This document shows positions 13,001 to 27,029 of a DNA stretch of 60,445 bases, in pieces. The stretch spans positions 1 through 60,445 of IMG/VR virus record IMGVR_UViG_3300036985_010229. The stretch is one strand, 5' to 3'. Position 1 is the stretch's first letter, and each line of letters starts with the position of its first letter. The stretch is from a virus. Its lineage: Duplodnaviria > Caudoviricetes. A model generated the notes under the pieces. The model searched no databases. It had not been told where the DNA came from and worked only from the letters and a program-made list of their open reading frames with translations. Both the position numbers and the translations under genes were made by a program.

Positions 13001-14993
13001 AGGAGCCCGCCCCGAGGCTGCTGGCGAGCCAGAGGACTGACGTGCCCCCGAGCATGAAGCTGAGCGTCTCGGTCCCGTCGAGGACGAACGTGTCCTGGAG
13101 CCGCGAGAAGAGCCGAGCCCGCTCTGCGTAGCTGGACGGGACGAACTCGCCCTGCCTGAAATAGATCGGCTTCCCGGTGAGTTGCTTGCGAGGAACGCTC
13201 CCGAACAGCACGAGAGAGCCCGCCCCGACGCGCTTCTGCAAGGCGACGTAGGCCACGTCTCCAGGAACCCTGAACGGGTCAGTCGGTAGCTCGTCCTCGA
13301 ACGACACCGGAATGACGTTCGTGACGGCCCGACCCTCCGTGAAGAGGATCGTGTCACCAATGCCGGAGGAGAGCTTCCGGACGAGGCCCGAGTTGCCCGG
13401 ACGAGGGCTGACCGCACCCGCGACGGGGGGATTGCCGAGCCCGTCTGGCACTTGAAGAATCCCGGACAACCCGAGGGCTGGCAGCGTCTCTGCGTCAGGG
13501 ACGAAGACCTCTTGGGCGGGGTTGTAGCTCGTGACGGGCGTGCCACCCGAGTCCACGAGGAGCACCGGAGCCTTCACCGGCTGCGGGTAGAGATTGAGCG
13601 ACACCCCGTCGTACCGAACGACGGCACCCAAGTAGAGCTTGTCGAACCCAGGATTGGGCACGGCCCGAGTGCCTGGGTCCGCCTTGGAAACGTCAGTTGT
13701 CGAGAGCTTGAGGCGTCCTGTCGAGAGGGCAAAACCGCACTCCCCTTCGAGCACGGTTGCCGCCGCAAGGTCGGACTCCGTGTCAAAGGGAAGTGCAGTG
13801 AGTGGCTGCCGGTTCCCCAAGCGGACGATCGGGCGCTCGCCGGGGCCAGGCACGGGGGCGAGGAACAGTGCCCTTGTCTTCGCTTCGAGGAGCGAGCCCA
13901 CGACGCCCAGGGACTTCTCGGCGAAGGTCTGCGGGACGTACCAAACGTCGAGCCCCTCGTAGGTCTGAATGAAGGCCGGGTTCCAGACGATCTTCCCGGC
14001 CCCCGAGCCAACAACCCCCGCGAGAGAGGGCGAGACGCTCGTGAAGTTGTAGCTCGCGTTCGCCAGGTCGTCCGGAACGACCAGGACGCCCGAGTAGTCG
14101 CCGACCGTCCGGCTGACGACCGGGTAGCTGGCAGCGTCCGGGGCAGGTCCGAGGCGGACCATTGCGTAGGAGTCCCCCGCGTCCGAGCCCGGAAGAAGTG
14201 CGCCCACCTGAGTTGTCGGCCTAGGGTTGAGCGTGTAGCTCCGTCCGTCCGAGGAGAGCTTCCCGAGTGTGGCAGGAGCACCACCCCGGTAGGGCTCCCA
14301 CTTCTGGGCCGCACCGTTCCAGCCGAACCGGCGGGAGTACGGGTCGTTGCGGGTCCACCAGAAGCGGGCCGCCGACACCCAGTAGGAGATCGCCGTGACC
14401 CGGTCCCCACGCGCCTGGGAGAACGCCGGGTCCGTCGGGGAGACCGGCTGCGTCGCCAAGAGCGTGTTCGCCGTCGGCAGGAGCTTGATCGCCCCCGAGC
14501 CCGACACGAACGAGAAGTCTCCGCCCGCCAGCGTCAGCACGAAGGGCGTGGCCGGGCTGTCCCCTCGAACGACCGTGAGGGAGACGACCCCGGCGAGGTC
14601 ACGCCCGCCGTTGTCAGTGACGACGACCCGAGGCGAGCCGTCCGTAGATTGGCCTGTGGGCGAGCCTGCGTCGAAGACGGCGAGGCTGCCCTGTGGGATC
14701 GTCCCAGCACCGTCAGCCGTAGCCCAAGCTGGACCCTCAAGGGTGGTCAGCGTGCCGGTGTTCGCCGCCCAGACCAGGAACTCTTGCTCGCCCCCGAGCG
14801 GGGACTCCAGGACGGCGACTCGGTACTGGTCACCACGAGCCTCGACGAGAGCAGGTCCGCCCGCCGGGTACAGACCAGCGGTGGGCGCGACAACGTCACG
14901 GGCGACGCCGGAGTCAGCCGGTGCGCTCGTGTTCGCGTTCGAGGGCGAGGTCTTCGCTCCCCGCAGCGTGTATCCGTTGAAGAATTCAGCCAC
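4050..14993 (-). CDS. giant virion structural protein (3647 aa), probable baseplate/tail component
   Basis: Uninterrupted 10.9-kb ORF, beta-strand/Gly/Pro-rich. Recurring GD.L.I...G.Y.V modules and D...TGE(V/I)-type motifs are typical of large phage tail/baseplate proteins. Confidence 0.65.
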   Translation of the reverse strand: MAEFFNGYTLRGAKTSPSNANTSAPADSGVARDVVAPTAGLYPAGGPALVEARGDQYRVAVLESPLGGEQEFLVWAANTGTLTTLEGPAWATADGAGTIPQGSLAVFDAGSPTGQSTDGSPRVVVTDNGGRDLAGVVSLTVVRGDSPATPFVLTLAGGDFSFVSGSGAIKLLPTANTLLATQPVSPTDPAFSQARGDRVTAISYWVSAARFWWTRNDPYSRRFGWNGAAQKWEPYRGGAPATLGKLSSDGRSYTLNPRPTTQVGALLPGSDAGDSYAMVRLGPAPDAASYPVVSRTVGDYSGVLVVPDDLANASYNFTSVSPSLAGVVGSGAGKIVWNPAFIQTYEGLDVWYVPQTFAEKSLGVVGSLLEAKTRALFLAPVPGPGERPIVRLGNRQPLTALPFDTESDLAAATVLEGECGFALSTGRLKLSTTDVSKADPGTRAVPNPGFDKLYLGAVVRYDGVSLNLYPQPVKAPVLLVDSGGTPVTSYNPAQEVFVPDAETLPALGLSGILQVPDGLGNPPVAGAVSPRPGNSGLVRKLSSGIGDTILFTEGRAVTNVIPVSFEDELPTDPFRVPGDVAYVALQKRVGAGSLVLFGSVPRKQLTGKPIYFRQGEFVPSSYAERARLFSRLQDTFVLDGTETLSFMLGGTSVLWLASSLGAGSYTAPQVAASLNAAVVLASAPGSSYALSGRVVLAHTDPVTGFVSVGFGTGGVLDLSGCRALGFMPGWLASPPGDQSATDHNWLPDYGGEFGFYRSPRDLDGSQGLPDYRDKYRLTDRTLTEGISPTSFQFLDYPPREDVAGYDEGVFFALSAAGAPGVAPVVNSPLMPWADVQYLFEEKKFAWLTSGGSTGQVLAPVAGLNLEAAGLVPDSLIAPLNGFLRLSEGGPFVYLEPGVDFLFPKGGATGEAILISRVGALNLSGSRGHFTAGTDVLTDLNASFATVTAGDRLKVISGNAQGSYSVVAIPSATSVQVSPSFLVGDGGQNVSYEVYKGASPGTIDPTTVADVVYRGFNHLASEPFEIRVLASLGTAGSTLSPADSAKDIERGRPIFARIGQTGTDLPLGVLTQAVLGATANGVLFVPTTGARFTSGSFNLRVGTQEFVQGVGLLPVAVFSTNPANVEYLTSTGEVKFSTAILDEYQSATVTYVETLLPAVDLLSGQAEIDPNTGVIALSSVDLAAGAGKPVYFVEQLSTEGTDDVTANPILGAFTFLANPIRAGQLVEATYYRAVPNTGTLYLDSNGNPVQVKEFLPLYIRAEVMTRISSQLYSFNPTGRTVDQLVDPVVYTGSKQQTYGVPRGCSVDFSRNTVSFSAEVLSTTKVTISYAVFEAFGGETAYTVSAAPVWRPPFRLDKGQTQFLLDTDRTSDLLVGKALRVGAFTTYVKSAAYDAASDTTLVTVFPSTPQGAGSLDPGTNALSLLTDRPVAITVDPFGTAPVTVVGSDAGFLPTLAQAFNLAVTPRFEPVPKGQVEVKFEGDLTKYAVAGHLLEVFGKPFAIVKANFSTDGRATTVTVGTPFQESFSWSATMPNTAVRISARPVYPEGAAQFLGTSGFLPTEPFEVVLFGEVDSTGNALPGRTLTSGQDFNFTAGNGNLAFIGPRQPGLAANHRLVFARTDTQQIGPFVDKGQVQYPRLSSSFLYVDPPSARNGRLGGVLQGTYTFESPDAYYVRAVPFQTYVGEVSLELQKQATIQEPSNGPTISTGASKSNADYGRVGLVSESQNLVDRDRVARAFLGFYNAVVSSFEQIEETLDGSLVGERDGKLRLYVGKNDPWVPPGYEDAITGALNPRVLWFDVWLSARQGLPTIRLVATDPITNPLDTTTDSNGRPVGSYQDPSGFSALTGYQGVLVKNDVDDVVLLTRTRVQRKLAGFLYFRVTASGLYAPLSEANPFSRLFPERTTGFTTLGPGLDGNESTGNPGVYSAGKFGLDPLGFLFGSSFSMRSTTGSTIGALENPVLGQIQNVLGVQARDRLPRARVWAYSATGFPEVDPLSAGRPCFIATPLPLVDFPILSDTGLPDTSKLASQSVGPIPTGFNDLLTGDPELHTPPFNAGAQLALGYPEGNASELGYLGTLIPVPTLPPSSRYAGVFVEQVLKGCVVTLKSKDLVGADVPILNAALLISLTGASSGVPISPVRGDTLFVVPVSGASLPATSDPPTVAELQTFTTALPGYRTGTDFNFTPRTGEITDATLPSFSDPTLFGLKEITGQRPPAPLSTLEAQVSFQNGSRLPTKFPALEGGKTLDSGDYSLPYYGAPLSELEVLSDTAALITDLVRVDSPSPPPANPPQVHLYTTEAVYPDETLGADGTVSTSPALLATLSLFEDLSRKTTSGAYPPPPGHAGVGNVEPYDLLLIQAPTTGTPGLAGFPLGATGIHSIAAISNGSPNQVDLPRFVSAVKEGTLLDYFLNHAISWVGYPAYATGLVVQENTTLAPIETTFDVSSVGSANIVLDDGVGGGLLPVPVGGLNDVFALNGKGSRFTLGLIDKATGQFAVGSTVIVEKLGGGANILLCPFEVSGDGGATFVPIVPGGFYFLPDKVVIKTAAPNVFFDFAPYNPVVGPPGVTTTGGFHDFSISVLCLMSQTGSIDVDRVTFKDRIDFRTALPRGFIHPSSPTGSPMECGLATYRFSSETYNTVISSFVMRDNQVNNVATVNAGLPFTFPARSWLTPSVNGVGTWAANSGSLRVLGFEGRGNLPIEATGVTFTAIPSSRQDEAGPIYNGLMVVGELLGAGAPYRFTVENNFTTPNDFAGSLSLVQPGDIAVVKGFVDPTTTPATPFGSGKVGTYLVRAAVTETPGFLPGHQLDLSTTLGSVGDWLDFTFPTVVSFNSLGPDLTVTSLVPLTLLQDLNAAPVAVPFAFPPSGRVYVVLDATAVGLASSAVSAAYTSLDTVGSRFLGLSAFQDGVGGVLTLAQFQAAAVAGLAVSGMTVVPVVAHDAEVPSNLPGLTFWPTPPAGTEYFFGFRKVTATRVGPPVVYDASAFNLVGVPPAPGQVAVYSKVKVPSTTFLQLDQPVYDDIPGALDLTNFNWPGVHGAGPACLLPGDVWDLEYHARHGIFVEPSFPVSGNDLGLPRVNVVDATHSLTAAEVGSRDATSYLGAGPAGGSYLEFAQVEVRRIRRFHPLLNDLVTAFLRLRFVYEIRRGLVQTFSSTGSAGALVAEPVNTLLYPTPLAGGTATQLGDFTDPNIGIKSGDQVRFLDALGAVVAEAEILTVETDGKTLTISKNALTGVTPGTRFEVYLRTAPIPHEQSCEELLDLTVDRLLLDRRADLVGQTGGKVTYLPDADPQVAYDQSINKLSDTDPSVNFAALGILPGDVLVIDPAGALRGPTGFPVTPEKGTRPFGDDGVLPRGAPVYVPGSPSRTDDNRGYYKVLSATATSLEVVPLGGTLAADRNSPDVVFDSSYAEYPTVHGSNLSGAGNGLEGQMDLRPTAFCDGTNSFKGDWLSVAPFSYKVIRPTGFLTEETVELILSTRERMLSWIEELQGLFEANKSGTYFVFQRDQHIADLGDPSDPSDGLGVLFDAYLTSLEGRIFVSPFANTSDCLSILDRRFWGLDFRLDYLTPPFAPLDPPYSDFANGVGRPVLPDRIEEALQQRDKLRDSRWAWLTLRTDRVTGTIEAIRRFGRELPRRHAEQERLLAMVKGTQTP

Positions 14994-15970: not shown

Positions 15971-16201
15971 TCAGCCCTCGTCGTCGTCCGGCTCGTCCTC
16001 TCCGTCGTCGTCGAGGTCCTCGTCGAGATCGTCCACGTCGTCCACGGTGGTCTCCTCGACCGTCTCCTCCTTGGAGATCTCGATCAAGATCCGGGCATAC
16101 GCCTGGACCCACTTCTTGACGCTGCGGGAACCCTCAGGAAGCCGCTCGACCGCGTCGGGGCTGCGCGTCTCGATCCACTCCTCAATCTCTTCTCTCGTCA
16201 T
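15971..16201 (-). CDS. small protein with highly acidic C-terminal tail
   Basis: 76 aa; about the last 30 residues are mostly D/E. Confidence 0.65.
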   Translation of the reverse strand: MTREEIEEWIETRSPDAVERLPEGSRSVKKWVQAYARILIEISKEETVEETTVDDVDDLDEDLDDDGEDEPDDDEG

Positions 16202-16233: not shown

Positions 16234-18471
16234 TCAATCGTCGAATCCAAATAGGCTGTTCATGCTCACCGGAGCTTCTTCAGGCAGGTCAGCCTGAACA
16301 GGAGCAGCCCAGGGGTTCCTTACGCCGCCACGGGACTTGAGTTCGTGGTGCGTGATCCTAGACCGAGTGATCTCGACGTAGCTGGGGTCAAGCTCGATCC
16401 CGACGTAGCGCATACCCTCCAGGACCGCCGCACACCCAGTGCTGCCGCTGCCGTTGAACGGGTCCAGCACAACCCCACCAGGTTGCGTGACTAGGCGGAC
16501 CAGCCACCGCATGAGTTCGATCGGCTTGACCGTCGGGTGGTTGTTCTCAGGCAGTCCTTCGAGTCCCTCGTGACGCTCAGAACGACTCGTCTTCGGGACG
16601 TACCTGAAGGGCGCGTCCTCCGCCGTGTACTGGAACTGAGGGAAGAACCGTGAGGCTCCGCCTGAGTCTCCAGGCCCAAAGTCGTTGGTTACAGGACCAT
16701 GCCCATACATTCCCCCGCCGCCCTTCGAGTCCCCTATATTCCCACGCGCCCGCAGATCATCACCACCCTGCTCGTCGAGCGCCTTCACCGGGCACCCGTC
16801 GGCGCACTCCCAGTCGGTCACTGTCTCGGTGCCGTCTTCGTCCCCAATGCGAGCAGGAACGGCCTCTGCACGATCCCCCGTGCCGTCACGGTAGTGCGAC
16901 CAGAGCTTGCCTGAGCCCTCAGAGTTGGCCTTCACCTTCTTGGTGCCTACCTGCTTGCAATCGGGCGTGTGGCAGAGCACGAGGTTGGAGGGCCACCTCC
17001 CCATGGGTTGCTCGAAGCCACCCGCCCCGCCGTGCTTGTAGCGCCAGTTCTCTGCGCCGTCGTGCCGACCCTTGCGCTTCTCGGACGGGTGGTCGTGGTA
17101 GGGCATAGCCGCTGCGTCTGGGCAGTTCGGGTCAATGCACTGGTACGAGTCTTCGTCCTCACCTTTCGACTTGTACGCTCCGCCGTTCAGGTTCTCCGAC
17201 GTTTCGACGCGGCACCCGTCGATGTTGATCGCCCCGGTGCCGTGTTGCTGGACAGTCTGGGCGACGGTGCCTGACAGAGGCTTCCTGTACATGAGCACCG
17301 GCTCATGAGCGGGCTTGAGCGCGGTGCCCCAACCCTCCCAGGCTTGCGCTTCTTCGGTGCGGGCCTCGTAGGGCGGGACGGCGTTGCTGGTGAGCTTCTC
17401 GTCGGCGTACTTGCCGCCTGGCAGGTGCGTCGAAGCTGTCGGGATTGCCCTGCCCCGGTCAGGTAGCCCCTCGCCCTTGTCGATCGAGAGGGCGACGTTC
17501 TTCGACTTGGGGAAGCCGCTTCCGAAGTGCCAGCCGAGCACGCCCTCGACGCGGATCTCGTCACGGCAGTCGAACCCGGCGAGCCGGATCGCAACGCCCA
17601 TGAGGTCCTGCGTGCGGGTCCCCGCGAATGCGAGGAGGTGGCCTCCAGGCTTGAGCACACGGAAGCACTCACGCCAGATCTCTGGCCCCGGCACGAACGA
17701 GTCCCAGCCCTTCCCCATGAAGCCTGTCCCCTTGGGCAGGTACGGCTTGCCGTCGAGCCACGCCCGGAGGGCACCGAGTACGTCCTCTGCGCTGTGGTTC
17801 GAGAGCCCGTAGGGCGGGTCACAGACTACTGAGTCCACGCTCGCGTCAGGCAGCGTCTTGAGCACTTCGAGGCTGTCCCCGTTGTGCAGTACCCAGCGGG
17901 TCGTCTCGTCAGGGAGTGGGGTCACGTCGGCGCTCTCGGTGCTGGTTGCGTCATGGGGTTTCTGGAAGAGCAGGATTGGCTCATGAGAGGGCTTGAGTAG
18001 GGTGCCCCAACCGCTCCACCGTTTTGCAGCGTCGGTGGCAGGGGCAGTGACAGCGAATTCCAAGTCCTTGTGTCTCCCAATGAAGTCGGGATCGTGCTCG
18101 CCTGCGGCGACTGTTCCTCCGAGCGACGAGAGCTTGGTCCCGATCACCTCTCGCTCGGCCTCGATCCGCTCGACAAGCGAATCGACCCACGGGGGGACCT
18201 CTCTGCACAATGGACGGACCACCCTCCACATTGCTGCCGTCGGGATCGCAGGTTGCCCGTCGTTGAAGTAGTGAACGGCGAAGTTGCTGTTGGGTGAGAT
18301 CAGCCCTTGCGACCGGAGCACACCGTCGATCTGCTTCGCCTTCAACCCGGTTGTTCGCATCCACGCTGTGAACTTGTGCAGCCTGCCGCCTTCCCCGTTC
18401 ACCCTGTCGAGAGCCTTGCTCACGTCGAGTGACTTGGGGAACCCCGTAGAGTAGAGCCAGGACAGGGTCAC
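16234..18471 (-). CDS. site-specific amino-DNA methyltransferase (N6A/N4C, beta class) with an extra partial MTase segment at the N-terminus
   Basis: GDSLEVLKTLPDASVDSVVCDPPY, HPTVKPIELMRWL, VLDPFNGSGSTG. The start is uncertain: GTG at 18471 was chosen to avoid overlapping the GIY-YIG gene, but the frame is open to 18603. Confidence 0.9.
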   Translation of the reverse strand: MTLSWLYSTGFPKSLDVSKALDRVNGEGGRLHKFTAWMRTTGLKAKQIDGVLRSQGLISPNSNFAVHYFNDGQPAIPTAAMWRVVRPLCREVPPWVDSLVERIEAEREVIGTKLSSLGGTVAAGEHDPDFIGRHKDLEFAVTAPATDAAKRWSGWGTLLKPSHEPILLFQKPHDATSTESADVTPLPDETTRWVLHNGDSLEVLKTLPDASVDSVVCDPPYGLSNHSAEDVLGALRAWLDGKPYLPKGTGFMGKGWDSFVPGPEIWRECFRVLKPGGHLLAFAGTRTQDLMGVAIRLAGFDCRDEIRVEGVLGWHFGSGFPKSKNVALSIDKGEGLPDRGRAIPTASTHLPGGKYADEKLTSNAVPPYEARTEEAQAWEGWGTALKPAHEPVLMYRKPLSGTVAQTVQQHGTGAINIDGCRVETSENLNGGAYKSKGEDEDSYQCIDPNCPDAAAMPYHDHPSEKRKGRHDGAENWRYKHGGAGGFEQPMGRWPSNLVLCHTPDCKQVGTKKVKANSEGSGKLWSHYRDGTGDRAEAVPARIGDEDGTETVTDWECADGCPVKALDEQGGDDLRARGNIGDSKGGGGMYGHGPVTNDFGPGDSGGASRFFPQFQYTAEDAPFRYVPKTSRSERHEGLEGLPENNHPTVKPIELMRWLVRLVTQPGGVVLDPFNGSGSTGCAAVLEGMRYVGIELDPSYVEITRSRITHHELKSRGGVRNPWAAPVQADLPEEAPVSMNSLFGFDD

Positions 18472-18492
18472 ACTTCGACCTGAGACTTCAGC

Positions 18493-18762
18493 ATGGTTGA
18501 GAATCCCTGGTGCGTGTACGTTCTTCGAGGCACCCGAGCCAGCGGGAAGCCAGTCTACTACGTTGGCTGCACGAACGACCTCGAACGGCGCGTTCGGCAG
18601 CACAACGGGGAGATCTCAGGCGGGGCCAGGTTCACGAGAGCACACCGCCCGTGGACGCTGTGCGTCAGCTTTGGACCGTACACAGGACGAGGCGAGGCCC
18701 AGCGAGTCGAGCGTTCCGTGAAGAAACTCTCAGGCGAGGCTCGGACCCGCTACCGCTCGTAG
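18493..18762 (+). CDS. GIY-YIG nuclease (small SLX1/YhbQ-like)
   Basis: VYVL...YYVGCTNDLERRVRQHNG...GARFTR..RPW...EA.R.E..VKKL. Confidence 0.85.
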   Translation: MVENPWCVYVLRGTRASGKPVYYVGCTNDLERRVRQHNGEISGGARFTRAHRPWTLCVSFGPYTGRGEAQRVERSVKKLSGEARTRYRS

Positions 18763-18932
18763 CCACAGTGCGGGCAGCGACGAGCGTTGTTTGCGATCCC
18801 GTTCCCGCAGCTAGGGCAGGGCACCTGTGCAGCATTGAGGGCGTTCAATGCCGCAGCACCGCACGCGAAGACGACGAATCCGAAACCAGCACAGCAGCAC
18901 AGACCGAACAGCCACGACATGGAGTCCCCCAT
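18750..18932 (-). CDS. small membrane protein with C-terminal zinc ribbon
   Basis: Hydrophobic N-terminus, then CPSCG...CPHCG; TGATG coupling to the upstream lipoprotein gene. Confidence 0.6.
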   Translation of the reverse strand: MGDSMSWLFGLCCCAGFGFVVFACGAAALNALNAAQVPCPSCGNGIANNARRCPHCGYER

Positions 18933-20191
18933 CAGAACTCCACGGCAGTACCCGTGCAGGTACCGGACGTGCAAGTGACGCGAACGAGCCGGTGGTCGGC
19001 AGCCCGAATCGAGTACTGAGTGGACCGTGCAGCCTGAAGGACAAGCACGTCCTTGCCGACTGGGTCGCAGGCGTCGCCGCACCGGACATAGGCCGCGTAA
19101 TCGACGGTGATCCCGAGGTAGTACTCGGAGTCGTTGACGAGCACAGAGGCACTACGCTCGTACTCCTCGTTCTCGATCTCCTCTGCCGTGGGCCGCCGAG
19201 TGTCCACCTGTCGGAAGGCACGGGTGGGCCGGACGCCGAGCAGGAGGGTCCAGTTGGAGTTCCCAGAGGCGATCTCCTCTGCCCGCGCCTTCAGCACGTC
19301 GTCCGTGTACTGAGCCCGGAGGTTCCACAGAGGGACGTTGACCTCGAAGGTGGGGTCGTCGCACATTCTTTCGGAGGGGCACGCCGTACACTGGCCAAAC
19401 ACGCACCGCGACCGCTCGCACCCCTCAATGCAGCCGCTGAAGAGGCCCGGCTGGCAGTCTTCGCTCGTGTCGCATTCCCCGCAAGAGCCTCCAGGGACTG
19501 TCTCACACTCCTGCTCCTTGGTGACCCTTGGCGGGGAGGAGCCCACGAAGACAGAGGCGTTTCCTACCTCGCAAGAGATCGACAGCCGGGAGACTGCTCC
19601 GGTGAACGTCGGCGTGCAGGTCTCGCCAATGCCCCACGAGTGGTAGCGGGTAGCCTTCAGACGATTGGTGATCGTCGCCCGCTCAGACGCGCTGAGTTCG
19701 GAGGTCTCCTCCTGCACTGCGACCGGACCGAGGAAGAGGGAGAACGGGTTGTCGTCGGAGTAGTAGGAGAAGCTGCTGGGCCAGTTGTCCGTGGCCGCAA
19801 TGATCCCAGCCTCTGACGCGGGGATACAGAGGTTGTCCGTGTTCGCCACCGCAACCAGCCCTGCCGGGACGGCGTGGTAGTCGCAGAGGATCGGGTACGA
19901 GACCCGACCGTCGGTGAGCGTCACCCCAGGAGTCGGGGCTGGGACCGACTCTGCCGGGGAGGGGGCAGCCTGTGCGCCCACCTCTGTCTTGGCTTCCAGA
20001 GCGGCTGCGTACCTCGCTGCCGCAGCCTCTGCCTCGCTCTGAGCCTGGGCGGCAGCCTGGGCGGCACGGGCTTGGGCGGCACGAGCCTCGTCTGCCTCCC
20101 CTGAACAACCGAACAGAACCAGAACCAGACACGTCAAAGCACGGAGATTGGGAATCATGGGCACTGTTCCTTTGGGGGCTGCCTTCACCAC
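18932..20191 (-). CDS. Cys-rich lipoprotein
   Basis: Lipobox-like LVLVLFGC, an Ala-rich linker and a Cys-rich segment (CGECDTSEDC...C...C...C..C); may start at Met 20158. Confidence 0.65.
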   Translation of the reverse strand: MVKAAPKGTVPMIPNLRALTCLVLVLFGCSGEADEARAAQARAAQAAAQAQSEAEAAAARYAAALEAKTEVGAQAAPSPAESVPAPTPGVTLTDGRVSYPILCDYHAVPAGLVAVANTDNLCIPASEAGIIAATDNWPSSFSYYSDDNPFSLFLGPVAVQEETSELSASERATITNRLKATRYHSWGIGETCTPTFTGAVSRLSISCEVGNASVFVGSSPPRVTKEQECETVPGGSCGECDTSEDCQPGLFSGCIEGCERSRCVFGQCTACPSERMCDDPTFEVNVPLWNLRAQYTDDVLKARAEEIASGNSNWTLLLGVRPTRAFRQVDTRRPTAEEIENEEYERSASVLVNDSEYYLGITVDYAAYVRCGDACDPVGKDVLVLQAARSTQYSIRAADHRLVRVTCTSGTCTGTAVEF

Positions 20192-20574
20192 TCGAAGTAC
20201 GTCAGTTCCGCGAAGCTGAGCTTGAACGTCTCGCCTTGCGGGAGGTTCTCGATCACGAGGCGGAGCTTCTCGACTTCCTTGCGCTCCTTCTGCACCTCCG
20301 AGACCTCGCCCCGGACCTTCGCCGCGAGGCCGACGTTCAGATTGAGGTCGCCTGCGCCGTTGCTGGTGCCGTCGGAGATCGCCTGGAGCGACATGAGCAC
20401 GTCGCCTGCGTCCTTGAGGCCCATTTCCTTCGCCGCGTCTCGGATACGCCCCTCGCGCTCCTTGATCTTCGCCGCCACGCGATCACGAAGGGCGACTGCC
20501 CGCTCGACGATCTCCTTCCCCGTCTTCGGGAAGTTCAGGCTCTCGAAGTCCCCGTAGTACCCTGGTCGTGCCAT
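20185..20574 (-). CDS. coiled-coil hypothetical protein
   Basis: 129-aa ORF with an SD-like GGAG upstream. Confidence 0.7.
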   Translation of the reverse strand: MARPGYYGDFESLNFPKTGKEIVERAVALRDRVAAKIKEREGRIRDAAKEMGLKDAGDVLMSLQAISDGTSNGAGDLNLNVGLAAKVRGEVSEVQKERKEVEKLRLVIENLPQGETFKLSFAELTYFEW

Positions 20575-20593
20575 GCCAATCTCCCTCTCGCCC

Positions 20594-20791
20594 TCAATCG
20601 GGCATTTCGGCGATCATTTCCGAGGTCACCGCTGACTCGTAGTCGAGCAGCATTACGCCCAGCACCTGCTTGTCGGTGTGGACTTTCCCAATCTCCCAGG
20701 AATCCTGAGGTGGTTTCACTCGAAGCAGCAGTTCCCCGTCCCTCAGGAGGTAGTCCGCAATGCGTCGAGCGTGCTGTTCAGAGAGCTTCAT
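20594..20791 (-). CDS. hypothetical protein
   Basis: MKLSEQ... start forms an ATGA overlap with the upstream stop. Confidence 0.55.
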   Translation of the reverse strand: MKLSEQHARRIADYLLRDGELLLRVKPPQDSWEIGKVHTDKQVLGVMLLDYESAVTSEMIAEMPD

Positions 20792-21405
20792 TTGGACCGA
20801 GCCTTCCTGGGTTTGAGCCGGACAGGCTCTACCCACCCACGGCGCTTTCCAGGCGGGGTCGTGTAGGCCGCCTCGCCCCACCCGTGGCGAATCCGCCAGA
20901 GGAGGGTGGCGTACTTGATCCGCAGGAGCCTCGCCCAGGCACGCTTGGTCCTGGACACCCCTTGGACCTTGACCATGTGGTCGGCGTGGCTCTTGAGCCC
21001 GAGGTTCTGCTGCGAGATCGTCTGCCACTCGCACTCGCCCGGACCGTAGTCGCTGAACGGGGTCAATCTCCCGAGGGTCTTCCCTGGGGGTCGTGGTCCC
21101 ATGTCTGCGAGGAAGTTCTCGAACTTCCGCCACCGAGCAGCAACACGGATCCCCTGCGCCCCGTAGTGCTCGTAGGAGCGGTGGTTCTTGCAGTGACACC
21201 GCTGAACCATGGCCCGCCAGGTCGTGTAGGTGGGCGACTCAAGCCTCCCGTCCTCACGGACCGCACGGTGACCATGCCTCAACCCAGACGACACCCTCTT
21301 GTGGAGGGGGGCACTGGGGTCAGCGGTCGGTGGGTCACACGCTCGGGTCGCTGTCGTAGGGGAGCGTCGCGTCATGGACCCGGTCCCCCAAACCCTTGAG
21401 CCCAA
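20788..21405 (-). CDS. HNH-endonuclease-like protein, apparently degenerate active site
   Basis: TY.TW.AM.QRC....H.SY..YG..GI.V..RW..F..FL.DMG.RP.G.TL matches a common phage HNH-like family; the true start is probably downstream of 21405. Confidence 0.7.
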   Translation of the reverse strand: MGSRVWGTGSMTRRSPTTATRACDPPTADPSAPLHKRVSSGLRHGHRAVREDGRLESPTYTTWRAMVQRCHCKNHRSYEHYGAQGIRVAARWRKFENFLADMGPRPPGKTLGRLTPFSDYGPGECEWQTISQQNLGLKSHADHMVKVQGVSRTKRAWARLLRIKYATLLWRIRHGWGEAAYTTPPGKRRGWVEPVRLKPRKARSK

Positions 21406-21496
21406 GCTGGAAGCAGATCTCCGAGAGCGGGTGGGCCACCATGTTGTGGACCGTCCATTGGAACCGCTTCGGGAGGGCGCTGACGAGGTTTCTCAT
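21335..21496 (-). CDS. small conserved phage protein
   Basis: WTVHNMVAHPLSE....HDAT motif; ATGA overlap. Confidence 0.6.
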   Translation of the reverse strand: MRNLVSALPKRFQWTVHNMVAHPLSEICFQLGLKGLGDRVHDATLPYDSDPSV

Positions 21497-22065
21497 GGTG
21501 TGACCGTACCGAGGTGCCCCTGTAGACGGGCGACGCCAATCGTCCCGCAGTAGCGAGCGGTCGGAGCCCCCGGAATGACCCAGTCCTTCGAGGCGGTCGG
21601 GACAGTCATTTCCAGCACAGCGTACCCGTGCGCTTGGAGCCACTCAGCGTCTGCGACACCCTCAGCCAGTTCATAGGACGACCACACGATCCACGGAGGT
21701 TGAAGAAGATTGAGCGTGCTCTCCCAGGTCGGGGTGGGCGTGTCAGCCCTCGTGTACCCGACGTGGCGGGTCGCTGGGAGGGTGAATCCAGGCTGGAGCA
21801 TGATTGCAGGCAGCCCGACAGGGGCACCCTGCTCCGAGCGGAGTCCAACGACCTTGGGTCTTCGGCACTCCCCGAGCAGCCTCAGGGAGGGGTCAATGAC
21901 GTAGACCTCGCGGACGCTCTCGTCCTTGAGCACACGGTAGGAGTCTGCGTGGACGTGGGTGCCTGCCCCGAGGTCGTAGATCTGCTTGGGACGGAAGACG
22001 TGCTTCCGCAGCCGTCGGATCAGCATGGACCGAGCGAGCGGCCTCCACGGGTGTTCTTCGCTCAT
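21493..22065 (-). CDS. putative SAM-dependent methyltransferase-like protein
   Basis: IYDLGAG motif I followed by a VYVID acidic strand. Confidence 0.45.
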   Translation of the reverse strand: MSEEHPWRPLARSMLIRRLRKHVFRPKQIYDLGAGTHVHADSYRVLKDESVREVYVIDPSLRLLGECRRPKVVGLRSEQGAPVGLPAIMLQPGFTLPATRHVGYTRADTPTPTWESTLNLLQPPWIVWSSYELAEGVADAEWLQAHGYAVLEMTVPTASKDWVIPGAPTARYCGTIGVARLQGHLGTVTP

Positions 22066-22066
22066 T

Positions 22067-22270
22067 TCAGAAGCACCACATATCATGGGCCATTGCGTTC
22101 GCCCCGCAGCGGGAGCAACTTGCACTGTCCGAGTTTTCAGTCGTGTGGCCTGGACCGTCCCAGACGTGCTCGCACGGCCCGTTGGGGCACTCGCACTTGC
22201 ACTTATGGGTCGAGATTCCGCAGAAGAACACCTGAACCACTGGCTTCGATTCGTCGGTCATGGTCGCCAA
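22067..22270 (-). CDS. small Cys/His-rich zinc-binding protein
   Basis: CKCECP.GPCEH.WDG...CSRCG. Confidence 0.6.
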   Translation of the reverse strand: MATMTDESKPVVQVFFCGISTHKCKCECPNGPCEHVWDGPGHTTENSDSASCSRCGANAMAHDMWCF

Positions 22271-22780
22271 TCACAGCGGGAACTTCAGCCCCATGTCGCG
22301 CATGGTGAGCAGCGCCTCTGCGTTGCCACGAGCGTCGTCCAACGGGTCGTGCGTGTGCCTCGTTCGGCGGAGGTGCTTGAAGTTCTGGAACGTGTCCTTG
22401 ACCATGCCCTTGTAGAGCGAGCCGAGGTTGGTCGAGGAGTGTCCGAACGGGCACGAGCCCATGAAGTGGTGGAAGTACCAGCAGACGAACATCCAGTCGA
22501 ACCCGTTGTTGTCCGAGACGAACATTGGGCGCTTGGTGAGGTTCAGCCAGTTCGCGAAGGCTCGCATTGCGGCCTCAGGCTCCATGAACGTGAGGGTCTG
22601 CTCGCGTGTGTGTCCGCTGACAGCGAGCGCCTCCGGGACCCACTTCTCGGAGATCGGCCTGAGTTGGATCTTGAACTGCTGTGTGAAGCCCGGCTCGACC
22701 ATGACTGCCCCCAACTCGATCATTGAGTAGTCGCCAGGAATCGGGCCGTCGGCCTCAATGTCCACCATGACGTAGGTCAC
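22271..22780 (-). CDS. DEDDh 3'-5' exo(ribo)nuclease (DUF5051/RNase AS-like)
   Basis: VDIEADGPIPG.YSM..LGA, NGFDWMF, HDPLDDA; GTGA overlap start. Confidence 0.85.
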   Translation of the reverse strand: MTYVMVDIEADGPIPGDYSMIELGAVMVEPGFTQQFKIQLRPISEKWVPEALAVSGHTREQTLTFMEPEAAMRAFANWLNLTKRPMFVSDNNGFDWMFVCWYFHHFMGSCPFGHSSTNLGSLYKGMVKDTFQNFKHLRRTRHTHDPLDDARGNAEALLTMRDMGLKFPL

Positions 22781-23058
22781 CGGAGCCACACACATTCCCA
22801 GCCGCTCTTCGCTGGATAGAAGGTCTCGTGAATAGAGGCAAACACCTCGCCCGTTGCGAGGTTCCGCCCAACGCTCTTGATCCACTCTTCGGTCGCAGCG
22901 ACACAGAGGTCCATGTCACTGTCCGGGTTGAAGCGCCCCTTCGGGATCTTGTACCACCCCTCCGGCGTCTTCTCGAACGAGGACACGTCCATGGCCTCTC
23001 CCCGATTGAGGAGCGACTTCATTTCGAGGTTGGCCAGGTGCGTGTACTTGTCGGTCAC
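22777..23058 (-). CDS. hypothetical protein
   Basis: 93 aa, translationally coupled. Confidence 0.65.
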   Translation of the reverse strand: MTDKYTHLANLEMKSLLNRGEAMDVSSFEKTPEGWYKIPKGRFNPDSDMDLCVAATEEWIKSVGRNLATGEVFASIHETFYPAKSGWECVWLR

Positions 23059-23312
23059 TTGCCGTCCATGAGCGCAGTGCGTGCGGCGTCGTAGCGGTTT
23101 TCTGCTCCCTGGCGCAGAACGTCTCTTGCATTCGGATAGAGCCCGCTCGAACGAAGTCCGTCCGCCGCGTCGATCACCCTCCGCTGCCGCTCGACGAGAG
23201 CGCGGAGGGCGTCAATCTCGTGGGGCAACGTGTTCTCGTCGCGGACGGCGCGCTCTCGAATCATGCGCTCCCACTCCGGGGTCATTGTCAGCGGCCCGAC
23301 TGGCGCGGTCAT
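23055..23312 (-). CDS. hypothetical protein
   Basis: 85 aa, coupled overlaps at both ends. Confidence 0.6.
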   Translation of the reverse strand: MTAPVGPLTMTPEWERMIRERAVRDENTLPHEIDALRALVERQRRVIDAADGLRSSGLYPNARDVLRQGAENRYDAARTALMDGK

Positions 23313-23782
23313 GTTGCACTCCGGTGTGCTGCCCGTGCGGTGAGATAGGCACCCTGCTTCTCCAGCAAGGTGCAGTAGCAGGACGCCCTCATGTCCTCAC
23401 CTGCTGCGGTACCAGCAACGTGCCGGGGACACCATGCTGGGGTGGCCGCGAGGAGTTCGTCTGCGGCGTCGAGTGCCACAGAGGCCAGGACGAGTTGGGT
23501 CCGCACCTTCGCGAGGTCGGCCCGCACCAGGTCGGACGAGGAGAGCAGTGCGTCGAGGGACTCATTCACGGCCTTCGGGTCGAGGTCGCGGTCGGTGTTC
23601 CGCGCTTCGGGGGCAGCAGCAACGAGTCGGACGAGCTTCGTGAGCAGCGAGTACACGTCCGGGGTGACAAGCTCACCCCGGACGTGAAGCTCTCCCTCAG
23701 CCGAGATCGTGATCACGTTGAGGGGATTGGGCTCCCCTCGAATCACGAACTTGGGCTCTGGTGCGGTGTCGCTCACCCGCAA
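23309..23782 (-). CDS. hypothetical protein
   Basis: About 157 aa, coupled. Confidence 0.55.
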   Translation of the reverse strand: MRVSDTAPEPKFVIRGEPNPLNVITISAEGELHVRGELVTPDVYSLLTKLVRLVAAAPEARNTDRDLDPKAVNESLDALLSSSDLVRADLAKVRTQLVLASVALDAADELLAATPAWCPRHVAGTAAGEDMRASCYCTLLEKQGAYLTARAAHRSAT

Positions 23783-24333
23783 CCTGCGTTCGACGCCGAC
23801 CCACCGTCGGGTCCACCGCCGATCTCGTAGACCGGCTTGGACGGGGGGAGACCGTCAGGGTCTGCTTCGACCACGGGGTCAGTCTCGACCGCCGAGTAGG
23901 AGTACGAGCCCCTCTTGCCGTGGCGGGTGAGCTTCCCGGTCGTGAACAGCTTGTAGAGGGCACCCTGGATCGACTTCTCGATCATGCCGGGGGACGCCTG
24001 CTTGACGCGGGTGATCAGGACCGCCTCCGACATGACGGCGGAGGGGTTCTCCTCGAACGTCTCGCGGACGATCCGCTCGGTCAGTTGGGAGACGCCCACG
24101 GCACGGGGCCGGGCGAGGCTCTCCTCCAGCGGGACGCCGAGCGCCGTGAGCATGGTGGCGAGCCGCTTGATCTGGTCCTCGATCACCGTCACCTCCTTGG
24201 TGAGGGACTCGATCGAGGCGAGGATCGTGGTGCGTCGTTCCGAGAGGTCTGCGTAGCCGATCCTGGCGTTGGCGACCATCTCGTCGAAGTTGAATGCGCG
24301 GTCGTTGTCTTCGTTGTCGTCGGAAGATTGCAT
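23773..24333 (-). CDS. coiled-coil + winged-helix-like DNA-binding protein
   Basis: Heptad helix, then SIQGALYKL...GKL.R.G.RG.Y.Y; GGCGTAA precedes the start. Confidence 0.55.
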   Translation of the reverse strand: MQSSDDNEDNDRAFNFDEMVANARIGYADLSERRTTILASIESLTKEVTVIEDQIKRLATMLTALGVPLEESLARPRAVGVSQLTERIVRETFEENPSAVMSEAVLITRVKQASPGMIEKSIQGALYKLFTTGKLTRHGKRGSYSYSAVETDPVVEADPDGLPPSKPVYEIGGGPDGGSASNAGCG

Positions 24334-24340
24334 GGGATCT

Positions 24341-24691
24341 TTACGCCTTCGAGGGACGCTTCGTGCCCTGCTTCTTCCCGAACTGCTTCGAGATTGCGTA
24401 GTTCGCCAGCACGGTGATTGCTGACTCCACACCGGACACGACCGCAAGGGCGAGCCGCAGTTCCGGGTTGAGGCAGATCTCTCCGTTGGTGAAGCTGAGC
24501 GGAATGCTCACGACCTCCCGCACTTGGTTCATGCGCGTCGGGGTCCGGACGAGTGTGTTCGTCTGGACACGAACGAACACCCCAGGTCCTGTGCCCCTGA
24601 GCTTGTTGTGGTCGAAGGGCATGACGCCCAACAGGGTGGGAGCAAGGTGCTTCGTCCGGGGCCGAGCCTTGGGCTTGGTCTTCGTGGTCAT
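24341..24691 (-). CDS. hypothetical protein
   Basis: 116 aa downstream of the bipartite promoter at 24711-24736. Confidence 0.65.
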   Translation of the reverse strand: MTTKTKPKARPRTKHLAPTLLGVMPFDHNKLRGTGPGVFVRVQTNTLVRTPTRMNQVREVVSIPLSFTNGEICLNPELRLALAVVSGVESAITVLANYAISKQFGKKQGTKRPSKA

Positions 24692-24710
24692 GGGTGTCCT
24701 CTCACTCCGG

Positions 24711-24736
24711 AAGCGATTGAGCCCAGGCCGTTTTCA
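24711..24736 (-). promoter_or_regulatory. bipartite promoter motif TGAAAA-N15-CGCTT
   Basis: One of 14 copies with an identical 15-nt spacer. Confidence 0.75.
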
Positions 24737-24933
24737 CGATTCACCCAGGAACGCACGGCACCGCCGCTCCCGCTCGTCATGGCGGAGGTGTCTGAAGGCC
24801 GTGACTCCGGACACCATGTGCTCTGGGATCTCCTCGTGGGGCAGGCCCTCACACGAGAGGCTCTCGACCAAGCTGTGGCTCGTCGGGTTCTTCACCGACG
24901 CCACGCGCCACCGGAGCACTGCGTCGTGGCGGC

Positions 24934-25149
24934 TCACGACCCACCCGGCGGGTACACCAGGACCATGTGGATCTCGATCTCCCCGGTCTTGGTCCACCGC
25001 CGCGAGGTGACCTGGTGCTCCCCGGTGTGGAGGTCGATCCAATCCCCCACCAGCGGCGGAGACGTGAAGTACATTTCCGCACGCTTTGCGTGGGCGACCT
25101 GACCGAGGTGGTTGTACTCCTCGATAACGATTGGGAACATGGTCAGCAT
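24934..25149 (-). CDS. hypothetical protein
   Basis: 71 aa; GGCGTAAG lies 7 nt before the ATG. Confidence 0.55.
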   Translation of the reverse strand: MLTMFPIVIEEYNHLGQVAHAKRAEMYFTSPPLVGDWIDLHTGEHQVTSRRWTKTGEIEIHMVLVYPPGGS

Positions 25150-25156
25150 GAGGCTC

Positions 25157-25426
25157 TTACGCCTCAGGGTCCTCGTCCTCTGCAATCTCTTCTTGGACAG
25201 GGGGCGGGTTCTGCACCTGGAACCCGCACTCGGGACACGGAGTGCAACACTCCCGCTGGTGGTAGATTGAAGGCCGGGCGTGGCAAACACACCGGCAAGG
25301 GGCGTCATGCTCGTGCCTACCCAGCGGGCAGTTCAGCAGGCTGACGGTCTTCTTGGTCGGGGCCTCGCTGTCGAAGAAGGTGTGTACGGGGACCTTCTTC
25401 GTGATCTCGTCGTCGTCGGAACTCAT
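25157..25426 (-). CDS. Cys-rich small protein
   Basis: CRCVCH...CC.PCPECG. Confidence 0.55.
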   Translation of the reverse strand: MSSDDDEITKKVPVHTFFDSEAPTKKTVSLLNCPLGRHEHDAPCRCVCHARPSIYHQRECCTPCPECGFQVQNPPPVQEEIAEDEDPEA

Positions 25427-25430
25427 TGGG

Positions 25431-25631
25431 TCAACCGCTCTTGACCACGTCTGCCACCGACTGCGGTACGACAGGGCAGGCACCCCGGTCACAGACCCAG
25501 TAGGTCATGTGCCCGCAACTGTGGCAGTTCTGAATGACGGGCAGGCTGCGGAGCTTATCTAGCTCGACGGTCAGCCGCTCGATCTCCTTGGCCATTCTCA
25601 CAACCTTCGCGTCATAGTCTTCAGCAGTCAT
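25431..25631 (-). CDS. coiled-coil + Cys-cluster small protein
   Basis: LPVIQNCHSCG..C...C. Confidence 0.55.
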   Translation of the reverse strand: MTAEDYDAKVVRMAKEIERLTVELDKLRSLPVIQNCHSCGHMTYWVCDRGACPVVPQSVADVVKSG

Positions 25632-25663
25632 GTCCAGTGAGCCCTATAGGCTCGGCAACCTGG

Positions 25664-26518
25664 TCAGGGCTCGTCGATCCCGAACAGGCTCTCCATGCTC
25701 ACCGGGGACTGGTCCTCAGCAGGCTCCGCGTCGCCGTCGTAGCAGCCGCAGTCGGGGGCAATGACATCTCTTGCCTGTAGGGCGCACGCCTCTCCCAGCA
25801 GGAGCCCACGCCACGAGAAGCTACGGCCCAGCCCATACGAGGTGGTCAGATTGGGGAGCGCGTTTTTCTCGATCTGGATCGCACGCTTCAGGTACTCCGG
25901 GTACTTGCGGCCCATTTCAATGATCTCCGACTTCTTCGTCGAAGGACAGTGGAAGCAGGACGACTTGCCCGGCAACGGCAGCCCGGCCTTCTCAATCACG
26001 TCCACGCACTCGTCTCGGGCCATGTCCCAATCGGTGAGCGGGGCCGTCCAACGAACAGCGCCAACCCCCTTCCCTTCGGGCTGGGGGTTCTTCGCGAGCA
26101 TTCGCTGGGCTCGTGACGGCTCACCAGCGTCGTAGCCGATCCACCGTTCGAGCACCTCACCACGACCCCAAGCAGCCTGAACGAGCGGGTGGTTCCGAAT
26201 GAACTGGTCGATCGGCTGCTTCCACTTCGAGGTGCAGCCCGAGTACCCGTAAGCCTTCGAGGGAAGCTCGCCACGACGCAGGCAGTCCTGCTCGATCGTC
26301 ACGAACTCGCCACCCTTTCGGATCCAACGCACCACGTCGATCTCAGGGAACCCACGCGCCACCAACCACCCGGTGAACAGCTTGAGGTACTCGTAGGTGT
26401 GGGGGAGTTCGTCCCCGGTGTCCGAGAACACGATCACGTCAGGGCGGATACCCCTGTTGTGAGCCTCGACGAGCAGCGCCGTGCTGTTCGTCCCGCCGCC
26501 GTAGCTGACAATGATCAT
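25664..26518 (-). CDS. PAPS-reductase-family (PP-loop adenine nucleotide alpha hydrolase) protein, probably DNA-modification related
   Basis: VSYGGGTNSTA PP-loop, FSDTG.E.P.TY, CT.KWK, IGYDA.E..R, PL.DW...R..C, KSSCFHCP. Confidence 0.85.
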   Translation of the reverse strand: MIIVSYGGGTNSTALLVEAHNRGIRPDVIVFSDTGDELPHTYEYLKLFTGWLVARGFPEIDVVRWIRKGGEFVTIEQDCLRRGELPSKAYGYSGCTSKWKQPIDQFIRNHPLVQAAWGRGEVLERWIGYDAGEPSRAQRMLAKNPQPEGKGVGAVRWTAPLTDWDMARDECVDVIEKAGLPLPGKSSCFHCPSTKKSEIIEMGRKYPEYLKRAIQIEKNALPNLTTSYGLGRSFSWRGLLLGEACALQARDVIAPDCGCYDGDAEPAEDQSPVSMESLFGIDEP

Positions 26519-26700
26519 TGCTGTGTCCCATACCCCGGTGAGTCTTCTAAGGCCGCCTCTGCCTTCTGAAGCCGCTCCCGTAGAGCGTCAATCTCAGCAA
26601 GCAGGGCCTTCAGCCGGACGCCCTCTGACCACCGCTCACGCTTGAGAGCGTGAGCGCGAGCCTCTGCTTCGACCTCTGGAGTGATCGCGATCGGTCCCAT
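26515..26700 (-). CDS. hypothetical protein
   Basis: 61 aa with an LLAEIDALR helix; ATGA overlap. Confidence 0.5.
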   Translation of the reverse strand: MGPIAITPEVEAEARAHALKRERWSEGVRLKALLAEIDALRERLQKAEAALEDSPGYGTQQ

Positions 26701-26708
26701 GCCCCACT

Positions 26709-27029
26709 CTACTGGTGGGTCAGCCTGACAGGCTCTTCCATGCCGACCCACTCCATGAAGGTCGTGCCCTTGTGCTGCCAGATCCGAAGCTGGATCTTCC
26801 CTTCGGCTTCGAGCCAACCCTCGTCGGTGTCGCAGGACTCGCACGAGAAGTTGATCCGAAGATCGTCCCGACGGTCCGCAATCCTACCGAAGTGGGTCTT
26901 GAGCCCGCCCTTGTTGACGGTGACGATCGTGCTGTCAGGCTCGTCCTCCTCACGGCGGAAGCCGACCTCGACGCGGATCTGGTGAAGGTTGTCCGACCCG
27001 CAGCGGGGGCAGGAGAGATACTGGAGCAT
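26709..27029 (-). CDS. zinc-ribbon protein
   Basis: CPRCGSDNLHQ...F.CESC. Confidence 0.65.
   Translation of the reverse strand: MLQYLSCPRCGSDNLHQIRVEVGFRREEDEPDSTIVTVNKGGLKTHFGRIADRRDDLRINFSCESCDTDEGWLEAEGKIQLRIWQHKGTTFMEWVGMEEPVRLTHQ

Follow-up and report, generated by a model that had tools for sequence, protein, structure and literature searches.

A conserved C-terminal peptide resembling clamp ligands on a DNA methyltransferase and an unrelated PP-loop enzyme of a very large phage

We describe here two genes of a phage of the Caudoviricetes whose products, a DNA methyltransferase and a PP-loop ATPase, finish in nearly the same short peptide, which we refer to as the tag. Both genes lie in a 60,445-base IMG/VR record (IMGVR_UViG_3300036985_010229), which we call the window, meaning the whole stretch of DNA that was analysed. 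The record is the whole assembly for this sequence, has a G+C content of 64%, and carries almost all of its genes on the minus strand according to a gene call based on G+C at third codon positions (GC3). The features at issue, with protein lengths in amino acids (aa) and model confidence as predicted local distance difference test (pLDDT), are the following.

16234..18603, minus strand: N6/N4-type DNA methyltransferase, 789 aa from the first GTG (PF01555, 97.6 bits; phrog_67, E 1.7e-72).
16273..16308, minus strand: flexible linker AAPVQADLPEEA of the methyltransferase, joining the catalytic domain, which ends in GGVRNPW, to the tag.
16237..16272, minus strand: C-terminal tag PVSMNSLFGFDD of the methyltransferase; the motif in relatives is P x [ST] [LMI] [DE] [DS] L F G F.
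25664..26518, minus strand: PP-loop ATPase of the PAPS-reductase/TtuA/DndC superfamily, 284 aa (phrog_424, E 4.2e-32).
25706..25732, minus strand: acidic linker DAEPAEDQS of the PP-loop enzyme, added past the family's usual end CGCYDG; low pLDDT.
25667..25705, minus strand: C-terminal tag PVSMESLFGIDEP of the PP-loop enzyme; the tail is modelled as disordered apart from a short helix at SLFG.
25493..26708, minus strand: lineage-specific block with the PP-loop gene, missing from the syntenic metagenomic relative L238.

The methyltransferase open reading frame (ORF) ends ...ADLPEEAPVSMNSLFGFDD, with its stop codon at 16234-16236, and the PP-loop ORF ends ...AEPAEDQSPVSMESLFGIDEP, with its stop codon at 25664-25666; a Pro/Glu/Ala-rich stretch precedes each tag. 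The first-pass annotation of this DNA, made from the sequence alone, had placed one and the same tag at the end of both enzymes, behind a flexible linker and on unrelated catalytic folds, and all of this was borne out: the tails agree at 9 of 11 positions, the tail of the PP-loop enzyme, residues 261-284 with linker and tag, falls to a pLDDT of 45-54 in a model, and a PF01555 match of 97.6 bits stands against a PP-loop ATPase fold recognised by phrog_424 and Foldseek.

The two tags are real, and their likeness lies beyond chance. A six-frame search with the pattern [SA][MLIV].[SDE]LFG found two places only in the 60,445-base record, each three to four residues before a stop codon, and M.SLFG turns up twice in ORFs of 100 aa or more, against an expectation of 0.07, both times at the C-terminus and never internally. 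In a comparison of the C-terminal 20 residues of 102 candidate proteins, this pair, with its nine identities, came top of 5151 pairs, and the runner-up was an Arg/Ala-rich pair with seven. When the tails were shuffled 200 times, the top score was 6 in 118 shuffles, 7 in 79 and 8 in three, and 9 was reached in none. At the DNA level the two gene ends resemble each other over the roughly 45 nucleotides (nt) of the tag only. The PVSM codons are identical (12/12 nt), and the Leu, Phe and Gly codons – three of the four in SLFG – differ synonymously (CTA/CTG, TTT/TTC, GGA/GGG). These synonymous differences, and a similarity that goes no further than the tag, argue that selection has acted on the peptide.

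The methyltransferase is a clear member of its family, scoring above the PF01555 (N6_N4_Mtase) gathering cut-off (97.6 against 26.7 bits), and the NCBIfam models of CcrM-type adenine methyltransferases match it weakly, far under their cut-offs. Its database form, which makes up a cluster of its own (P0121), is 745 aa long and would start at 18471. We searched a collection of 5.8 billion proteins with residues 560-789, examined the best 120 matches, and took as relatives the 27 that have the junction GG[VI]xxP[WF] at the end of the catalytic domain. Every one of the 27 continues into a tail of 21-30 residues, in which a variable linker rich in Pro, Glu, Thr and Ala, with no conserved sequence, leads into P-x-[ST]-[LMI]-[DE]-[DS]-L-F-G-F, followed by 0-4 extra and mostly acidic residues. 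Numbered from the Phe of the Leu-Phe pair, the tag has Leu at -1 (27/27), Phe at 0 (26/27), [DS] at -2 (27/27), [LMI] at -4 (27/27), [ST] at -5 (25/27), Gly at +1 (21/27) and Phe at +2 (24/27); position -3 is Asp, Glu, Asn, Ala or Pro in all 27, and Asn or Glu in the window pair, whose joint form is SM[NE]SLFG[FI]D. The methyltransferase of L238, the closest syntenic relative, has the variant AGMDSLFNFDE.

Such ends are uncommon in the neighbourhood of these genes: 7 of 2163 ORFs around the metagenomic relatives end in [LMIV].[DSE]LF, and five of the seven are methyltransferases. Among the best 120 matches, 11 further, more distant methyltransferases have Q..[LM]F or Q.[LM]F within their last 11 residues, and an alignment-based search of genome contigs returned diverse bacterial and prophage methyltransferases, a few of them with Q..LF-like tails. 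The tag has been carried by the methyltransferase clade for a long time. Its sequence pattern, conserved and C-terminal, is that of a short linear motif of the type seen in clamp ligands, and it is found on DNA-modifying enzymes of a clade of very large phages. The first-pass annotation had named a lack of conservation in homologs among the points that would speak against it, and the 27 relatives do keep the motif; its description of the tag as phage-specific is too narrow, and the tag is instead a family-wide feature of this clade.

For the PP-loop enzyme the assignment is to a superfamily. PF01507 scores 12.2 bits, below its cut-off of 22.5, and covers the N-terminal PP-loop only, where SYGGGTNS aligns to the PP-loop region of the model. 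A profile search against the PDB reached 1sur at E 0.59, and no solved structure matched the protein significantly by sequence. An AlphaFold model built on a 46-sequence alignment has a pLDDT of 88 and is confident to about residue 260; DSSP assigns to residues 261-284, the block of low pLDDT, one four-residue helix at 275-278, which is SLFG. Foldseek matched the model to APS/PAPS reductases, TtuA, LarE and GMP synthase with a probability of 1.00 and query TM-scores of only 0.32-0.43. The fold together with the N-terminal PP-loop places the protein in the PP-loop superfamily, with the modest TM-scores kept in mind, and the earlier label of PAPS reductase holds at that level and not at the level of the family, for which the PF01507 score falls short. 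Four cysteines are invariant in the family (Cys95, Cys188, Cys191 and Cys259) and are compatible with an Fe-S cluster, as judged from the Foldseek matches to [4Fe-4S] TtuA and LarE.

We examined the best 120 of 771 matches to the PP-loop enzyme. Most of these end a few residues from CGC[YFHW]DG and some have other short extensions, and the 22-residue extension with the tag is found in the window protein only (0 of 119 others). Other tails with Leu-Phe do begin at the same point, in P0018 (...CGCYDGEQLDLFDS..., containing EQLDLFDS...), P0115 (...HDQGDLF) and P0082 (...HDGDLFA); the QLDLF of P0018 we take to be the textbook beta-clamp pentapeptide. In L238, which has the same gene order and 58-90% protein identity, the homologues of 26709-27029 and 25157-25492 are separated by about 250 nt that hold no PP-loop gene. 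Since the gene is missing there and the tail is missing from its relatives, the PP-loop gene was acquired in this lineage, and it bears the tag already resident there. That the PVSM codons are identical is a hint that the sequence was copied from the methyltransferase gene, and the synonymous differences elsewhere in the tag indicate that the peptide has been maintained since.

A DNA-directed role for this enzyme is plausible, because the PAPS-reductase-domain proteins DndC, SspD and BrxP insert sulfur in the DNA backbone (PMC12914056). The window enzyme shares with them the PP-loop ATP-pyrophosphatase superfamily and conserved cysteines. It differs from them in its PF01507 score and in its surroundings, for Pfam and PHROGs showed no ATPase partner of the DndD/SspC type beside it. 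The tag is the sole direct hint that the enzyme may act on DNA, as the first-pass annotation proposed.

The phage genome is far longer than the window, at least 177 kb, as the methyltransferase cluster also occurs on contigs of 142,934 nt (JGI) and 176,827 nt (Logan); an exact search with the 45-mer at the right end of the window found no match among metagenome contigs. Pfam and PHROGs detected no polymerase, clamp, clamp loader, capsid, terminase or T4-like core genes in the window, in a scan of its proteins other than the one of 3647 aa. We therefore looked at a relative with a longer sequence, the uncultured phage LR745208.1 (485,034 bp), which has homologues of the giant protein of the window (48% over 3733 aa), of its 868-aa and 816-aa proteins, and of its RtcB.

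In LR745208.1 the pattern S[IV]L[DG][ML]F, which was derived from the matches in that genome themselves, occurs five times in 281,540 ORF residues, each time no more than six residues from a C-terminus, with no internal occurrence. Three of the tagged proteins are methyltransferase paralogues, one is a 1230-aa methyltransferase-like protein with LAGLIDADG inserts, and the last is a 288-aa protein without known function. Looser tails end a fifth methyltransferase (GTVLDLLEG), a DnaB-like helicase (...DDVGDLFT) and a 230-aa protein (ASELFGLFSDK). A proteome-wide search had been proposed in the first-pass annotation, with DNA polymerase, ligase and other methyltransferases as the expected carriers; the window gave its two enzymes alone, with no polymerase, ligase or clamp there, and LR745208.1 added five or more proteins, its polymerase not among them. 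The genome does encode a clamp loader (PF13177, 64 bits; phrog_5846, E 4.8e-46), and in two IMG/VR relatives (G006 and G007) a tagged methyltransferase lies about 4.5 kb from the clamp loader; the block that holds them is conserved and also has a primase-like gene. Because a clamp loader is encoded, and near a tagged methyltransferase, we expect that a clamp is in use.

Across IMG/VR, DNA encoding LDDLFGF was found in at least 118 stretches. Among the 122 matches listed, some of which are the same place in overlapping loci, 94 are internal and mostly belong to the terminase motif GGGLDDLFGF. The C-terminal cases among the matches listed include PF01555 methyltransferases (L125/L143, L196 and L197), a D12-class methyltransferase and a 599-aa protein without known function that are separated by 2 kb on a 105-kb contig (L161), and a fragment of a T4-like family-B polymerase that ends ELDDLFGF (L155). 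The full tag pattern gave no matches in IMG/VR, a collection that may omit the window's own record, and the eight matches to LFGFD[DE] followed by TGA are all in short ORFs of 15-64 residues. The best 80 loci found there with the methyltransferase alignment are distant and almost all lack the tag.

The closest likeness to a known system is to the clamp-binding tails of T4-type phages. Polymerases of this type end in ASLFDMFDF (Mosigvirus, RB69-like), NLDFLFA (P-HM2 gp43), TLEDFFG (Melnitz) or SLEAFFG (Mosig) in annotated phages. When the RB69-like S-L-F-D-M-F-D-F is aligned by eye with [ST]-[LMI]-[DE]-[DS]-L-F-G-F on the final aromatic pair, the two agree at the Ser/Thr, the first hydrophobic residue, the acidic residue or Ser, the [LM]-F and the last Phe, giving the shared pattern S-h-x-D-[LM]-F-x-F. 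The hydrophobic-acidic character and the h-x-x-a-a spacing of the polymerase tails are present in the tag, by the same unscored comparison by eye, and so is the extreme C-terminal position behind a variable linker, seen in 27 of 27 relatives and in the disordered tail of the model. The RB69 clamp has been crystallised with the last 11 residues of the polymerase, and the clamp-binding C-terminal tails of T4/RB69-type phages are interchangeable (PMC2988020). LDFLF is named as a gp45-interaction motif (PMC6212786), so the T4-like clamp motif cited in the first-pass annotation was sound. As with the tails of T4/RB69 gp43, gp55 and gp33 and of T4 ligase, several unrelated proteins of one phage carry a hydrophobic-acidic peptide at the extreme C-terminus, behind a variable and dispensable linker. 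The likeness is one of sequence, and there are differences: the carriers here are DNA-modifying enzymes instead of a polymerase or transcription factors, LR745208.1 has no recognised gp45-type clamp or family-B polymerase, and the window has no T4-like core genes.

We also noted a DNA-modifying enzyme with such an end in an annotated phage.

L407:3909-4895, Methylophilales phage Melnitz-3 (MZ577098.1): Tet/JBP-family oxygenase (PF12851), beside a C5-cytosine methyltransferase.

This oxygenase ends ...SGNLNDFLGE, which resembles the gp43 tail of the same phage (...TTLEDFFG). It adds a DNA-modifying enzyme whose end is like that of a polymerase, from phages known to use a gp45 clamp.

Bacterial beta clamps are bound through the pentapeptide QL[S/D]LF or the hexapeptide QLxLxL. 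The tag has the last three positions of the pentapeptide, [S/D]-L-F ([DS] 27/27, L 27/27, F 26/27), and, like these motifs, stands at the end of a protein after a flexible segment; Q-type forms do appear at the same site in the 11 of 120 distant methyltransferases and in the PP-loop relative with QLDLF. The tags of LR745208.1 read ILD[ML]F and so include the hydrophobic residue at -3 of the pentapeptide. A recent phage client of the beta clamp is MuC of phage Mu (10.1101/2025.01.04.631326).

A further parallel is the pairing of Dnmt1 with PCNA, as the arrangement we propose likewise puts a DNA methyltransferase on a sliding clamp. The core of the PCNA-interacting-protein (PIP) motif has the form h-x-x-a-a, and the PCNA motif of Dnmt1 is N-terminal. 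The spacing of the PIP core fits the tag, and the two cases differ in domain of life, enzyme family and motif position, and in that an enzyme set including a non-methyltransferase shares the tag here. Dnmt1 is tethered to the PCNA sliding clamp and methylates newly replicated DNA, and the 2022 clamp review that reports this names Dnmt1 alone among methyltransferases (PMC9690074). In a full-text literature search, which did not extend to supplementary files, no paper was found on clamp-type tails of phage DNA methyltransferases.

From these comparisons we favour, with moderate confidence, the reading that the tail docks on a clamp and so links the modification of DNA to its replication. Behind a disordered linker that varies in length and sequence stands an amphipathic, hydrophobic-acidic peptide at the extreme C-terminus, which would most likely insert in the hydrophobic pocket of a DNA sliding clamp, either phage-made or the host's, as the tails of T4/RB69 polymerase, gp33 and gp55 do on gp45 and as Dnmt1 does on PCNA. 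The tagged enzymes would then travel with newly copied phage DNA and modify it without delay. The PP-loop enzyme, as a recent acquisition given the resident tag, would by implication work on DNA or at the fork. We infer all three of these elements: the clamp as receptor, replication-coupled modification as purpose, and action of the PP-loop enzyme on DNA. A broader version, which we regard as doubtful, is that very large phages keep a plug-in tool-belt, in which each acquired DNA-modifying enzyme is fitted with the clamp-docking tail of the lineage, and that the tool-belt includes a Cys-rich PP-loop enzyme of the DndC/TtuA kind in a replication-coupled and possibly sulfur-based modification of phage DNA.

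A number of points weigh against docking on a clamp. The Gln of the beta-clamp motif is absent at -4/-5 from all 27 tags, and in place of the hydrophobic residue at -3 of the pentapeptide the window has Asn or Glu, the hydrophobic residue lying one position further from Leu-Phe. By Pfam and PHROGs there is no replication gene in the window, its tagged proteins number only two, and its two other methyltransferase-like genes (32357-32956 and 38838-39458) have no tag; the substrates of these two may not be DNA. Six clamp models (PF00712, PF02767, PF02768, PF09116, PF02916 and PF00705) found no clamp in LR745208.1, and three to four of them gave no match in the IMG/VR fragments G001-G003, G006 and G007; PF00136 and PF07733 matched neither LR745208.1 nor the fragments. 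A polymerase sharing the tail of its own phage was sought in LR745208.1 only, where the one polymerase found is of family A with inteins, ends ...GGTIPNVELE and carries no tag. Replicative family-A polymerases are not typical clamp clients. The end of the DnaB-like helicase fits the tag in part, and helicases are not known as clamp ligands, so that this tail points to another hub. Finally, most of the tagged proteins are methyltransferases, and part of the spread in LR745208.1 may reflect inheritance through gene duplication. The proposal of a clamp-type docking tag in the first-pass annotation is therefore upheld in part: it gains from the conservation in 27 of 27 relatives, from the match to T4/RB69 tails and from the clamp loader of LR745208.1, and it loses from the lack of a recognised clamp and from the untagged family-A polymerase.

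Candidates for the receptor are a phage clamp of divergent sequence, the beta clamp of the host once loaded on phage DNA, and the polymerase or the helicase. As the sole hub, the host beta clamp is weakened by the absent Gln, the shifted spacing, a genome of at least 177 kb and the clamp loader of the relative. In the search for a clamp we also looked at two neighbours of the clamp loader, a conserved 394-aa protein whose Gly/Val/Thr-rich, repetitive consensus looks by eye like a beta-helix and not like a clamp, and a 196-aa protein that looks helical by sequence.

Docking on a replisome part other than a clamp, likeliest the phage's family-A DNA polymerase, in the manner of T7, and otherwise a helicase or a hub resembling single-stranded-DNA-binding protein (SSB), would place modification at the fork all the same, and we judge it unlikely, though better placed than the alternatives that follow. 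In T7 the acidic C-terminal tails of gp2.5 and gp4 (SSB and helicase-primase), which end in Phe as a critical aromatic residue, dock on the DNA polymerase (PMC12339929). Acidic C-terminal tails thus organise a family-A polymerase replisome, and the polymerase of LR745208.1 is also of family A; the acidic linkers before the tags, the acidic residues that often stand at the very end, the six clamp models without a match and the part-fitting end of the helicase all suit this alternative. The T7 tails, however, are mainly electrostatic and rely on a single Phe, whereas the tag has four ordered hydrophobic positions that match an RB69-type tail, as clamp ligands do. The exact LDDLFGF also ends a T4-like family-B polymerase, the clamp loader leads one to expect a clamp in use, and the match of the helicase is partial, with Gly for Leu at -3.

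Still less probable, in our view, is that the tail is a sorting or turnover signal, either a C-terminal degron that times the lifetime of its carriers or a signal that targets them to a phage-made compartment or to the virion. Tags at the extreme C-terminus behind flexible linkers do suit degrons and sorting signals, the carriers all must meet phage DNA and a localisation signal would explain this too, and two proteins of LR745208.1, of 288 aa and of 230 aa (ASELFGLFSDK), bear tag-like ends. No known degron or sorting signal was matched, however, the tag tolerates 0-4 mostly acidic residues after its core, unlike degrons that are read from a free C-terminus, and the likeness to polymerase clamp tails and the QLDLF of a PP-loop relative would be left unexplained. 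That the second tail is a functionless by-product of a recent recombination, which placed a copy of the methyltransferase gene's 3' end on the neighbouring acquired gene, agrees with the identical PVSM codons and with the recent insertion of a PP-loop gene whose relatives lack the tail, but we consider it very improbable, given the synonymous differences in three of the four SLFG codons, the similarity that ends at the tag edges and a motif kept in 27 of 27 methyltransferase relatives while the linker drifts freely, and an origin by copying is in any case compatible with function.

A phage needs to have its DNA modified before the restriction enzymes of the host encounter it. Should methyltransferases and other modifying enzymes be tethered by the tag to the clamp or the fork, this would explain the fast protection of long genomes in very large phages, and the arrangement, if true, would be a counterpart in prokaryotic viruses of the Dnmt1-PCNA pair. 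The tag would also supply a sequence-only rule for enzymes that act on nascent DNA, applied here to the Cys-rich PP-loop enzyme, and the peptide could serve as bait for the hub or as a handle for finding the clamp of very large phages.

Several features of the relatives lie close to these subjects.

L229:11778-12401, contig G006, plus strand: 207-aa protein with sigma-70 region 4 (PF04545, 35.7 bits), just after the clamp-loader gene.
L429:3540-4232, LR745208.1, minus strand, and L230:7557-8228, G006, plus strand: pair of conserved proteins of about 200 aa, with tails ASELFGLFSDK and ASIFGLFETK.
LR745208.1 284690-296670 (L423) and 392525-396217 (L428): intein/LAGLIDADG homing-endonuclease insertions in the family-A polymerase, the DnaB-like helicase and the methyltransferase-like protein.

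The sigma-like protein of G006 has an acidic/hydrophobic stretch, EEDSLSFFGSVFTEPDEDD, ahead of its sigma domain, and is reminiscent of the clamp-dependent late transcription of T4. The proteins of about 200 aa have a long Lys/Glu-rich acidic tail and no Pfam or PHROG match, and, going by their ends, they might be one more client of that hub.

The remaining features of the window that we wish to record are these.

3184-4053: endolysin, by Pfam/PHROGs.
4050-14993, minus strand: giant ORF of 3647 aa, beside the endolysin and the 868-aa protein; the counterpart of the LR745208.1 protein noted above (48% over 3733 aa).
15971-16201, minus strand: 76-aa protein with an extremely acidic end, ...DDVDDLDEDLDDDGEDEPDDDEG, directly downstream of the methyltransferase.
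18493-18762, plus strand: GIY-YIG nuclease ORF (PF01541, E 2e-11), opposite the methyltransferase and over its annotated start region.
22271-22885, minus strand: RNase T/DnaQ-like exonuclease (PF00929), ending ...MGLKFPL.
32357-32956 and 38838-39458, minus strand: two more methyltransferase-like genes (phrog_15480; PF13489), without a tag.

Pfam and PHROGs also name an RtcB, an HNH nuclease, several methyltransferase-like genes and a DUF5131 protein. The 3647-aa protein is probably structural. If the methyltransferase starts at 18471, as in its 745-aa form, it does not overlap the GIY-YIG ORF. The 76-aa acidic protein is kept in the relatives L238 and L240 (86% over 51 aa), and from its composition it might be a DNA mimic or an anti-restriction protein. 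The end of the exonuclease is conserved in the same two relatives and is a hydrophobic C-terminus of another kind than the tag; MGLKFPL recalls, if loosely, the hexapeptide beta-clamp motifs.

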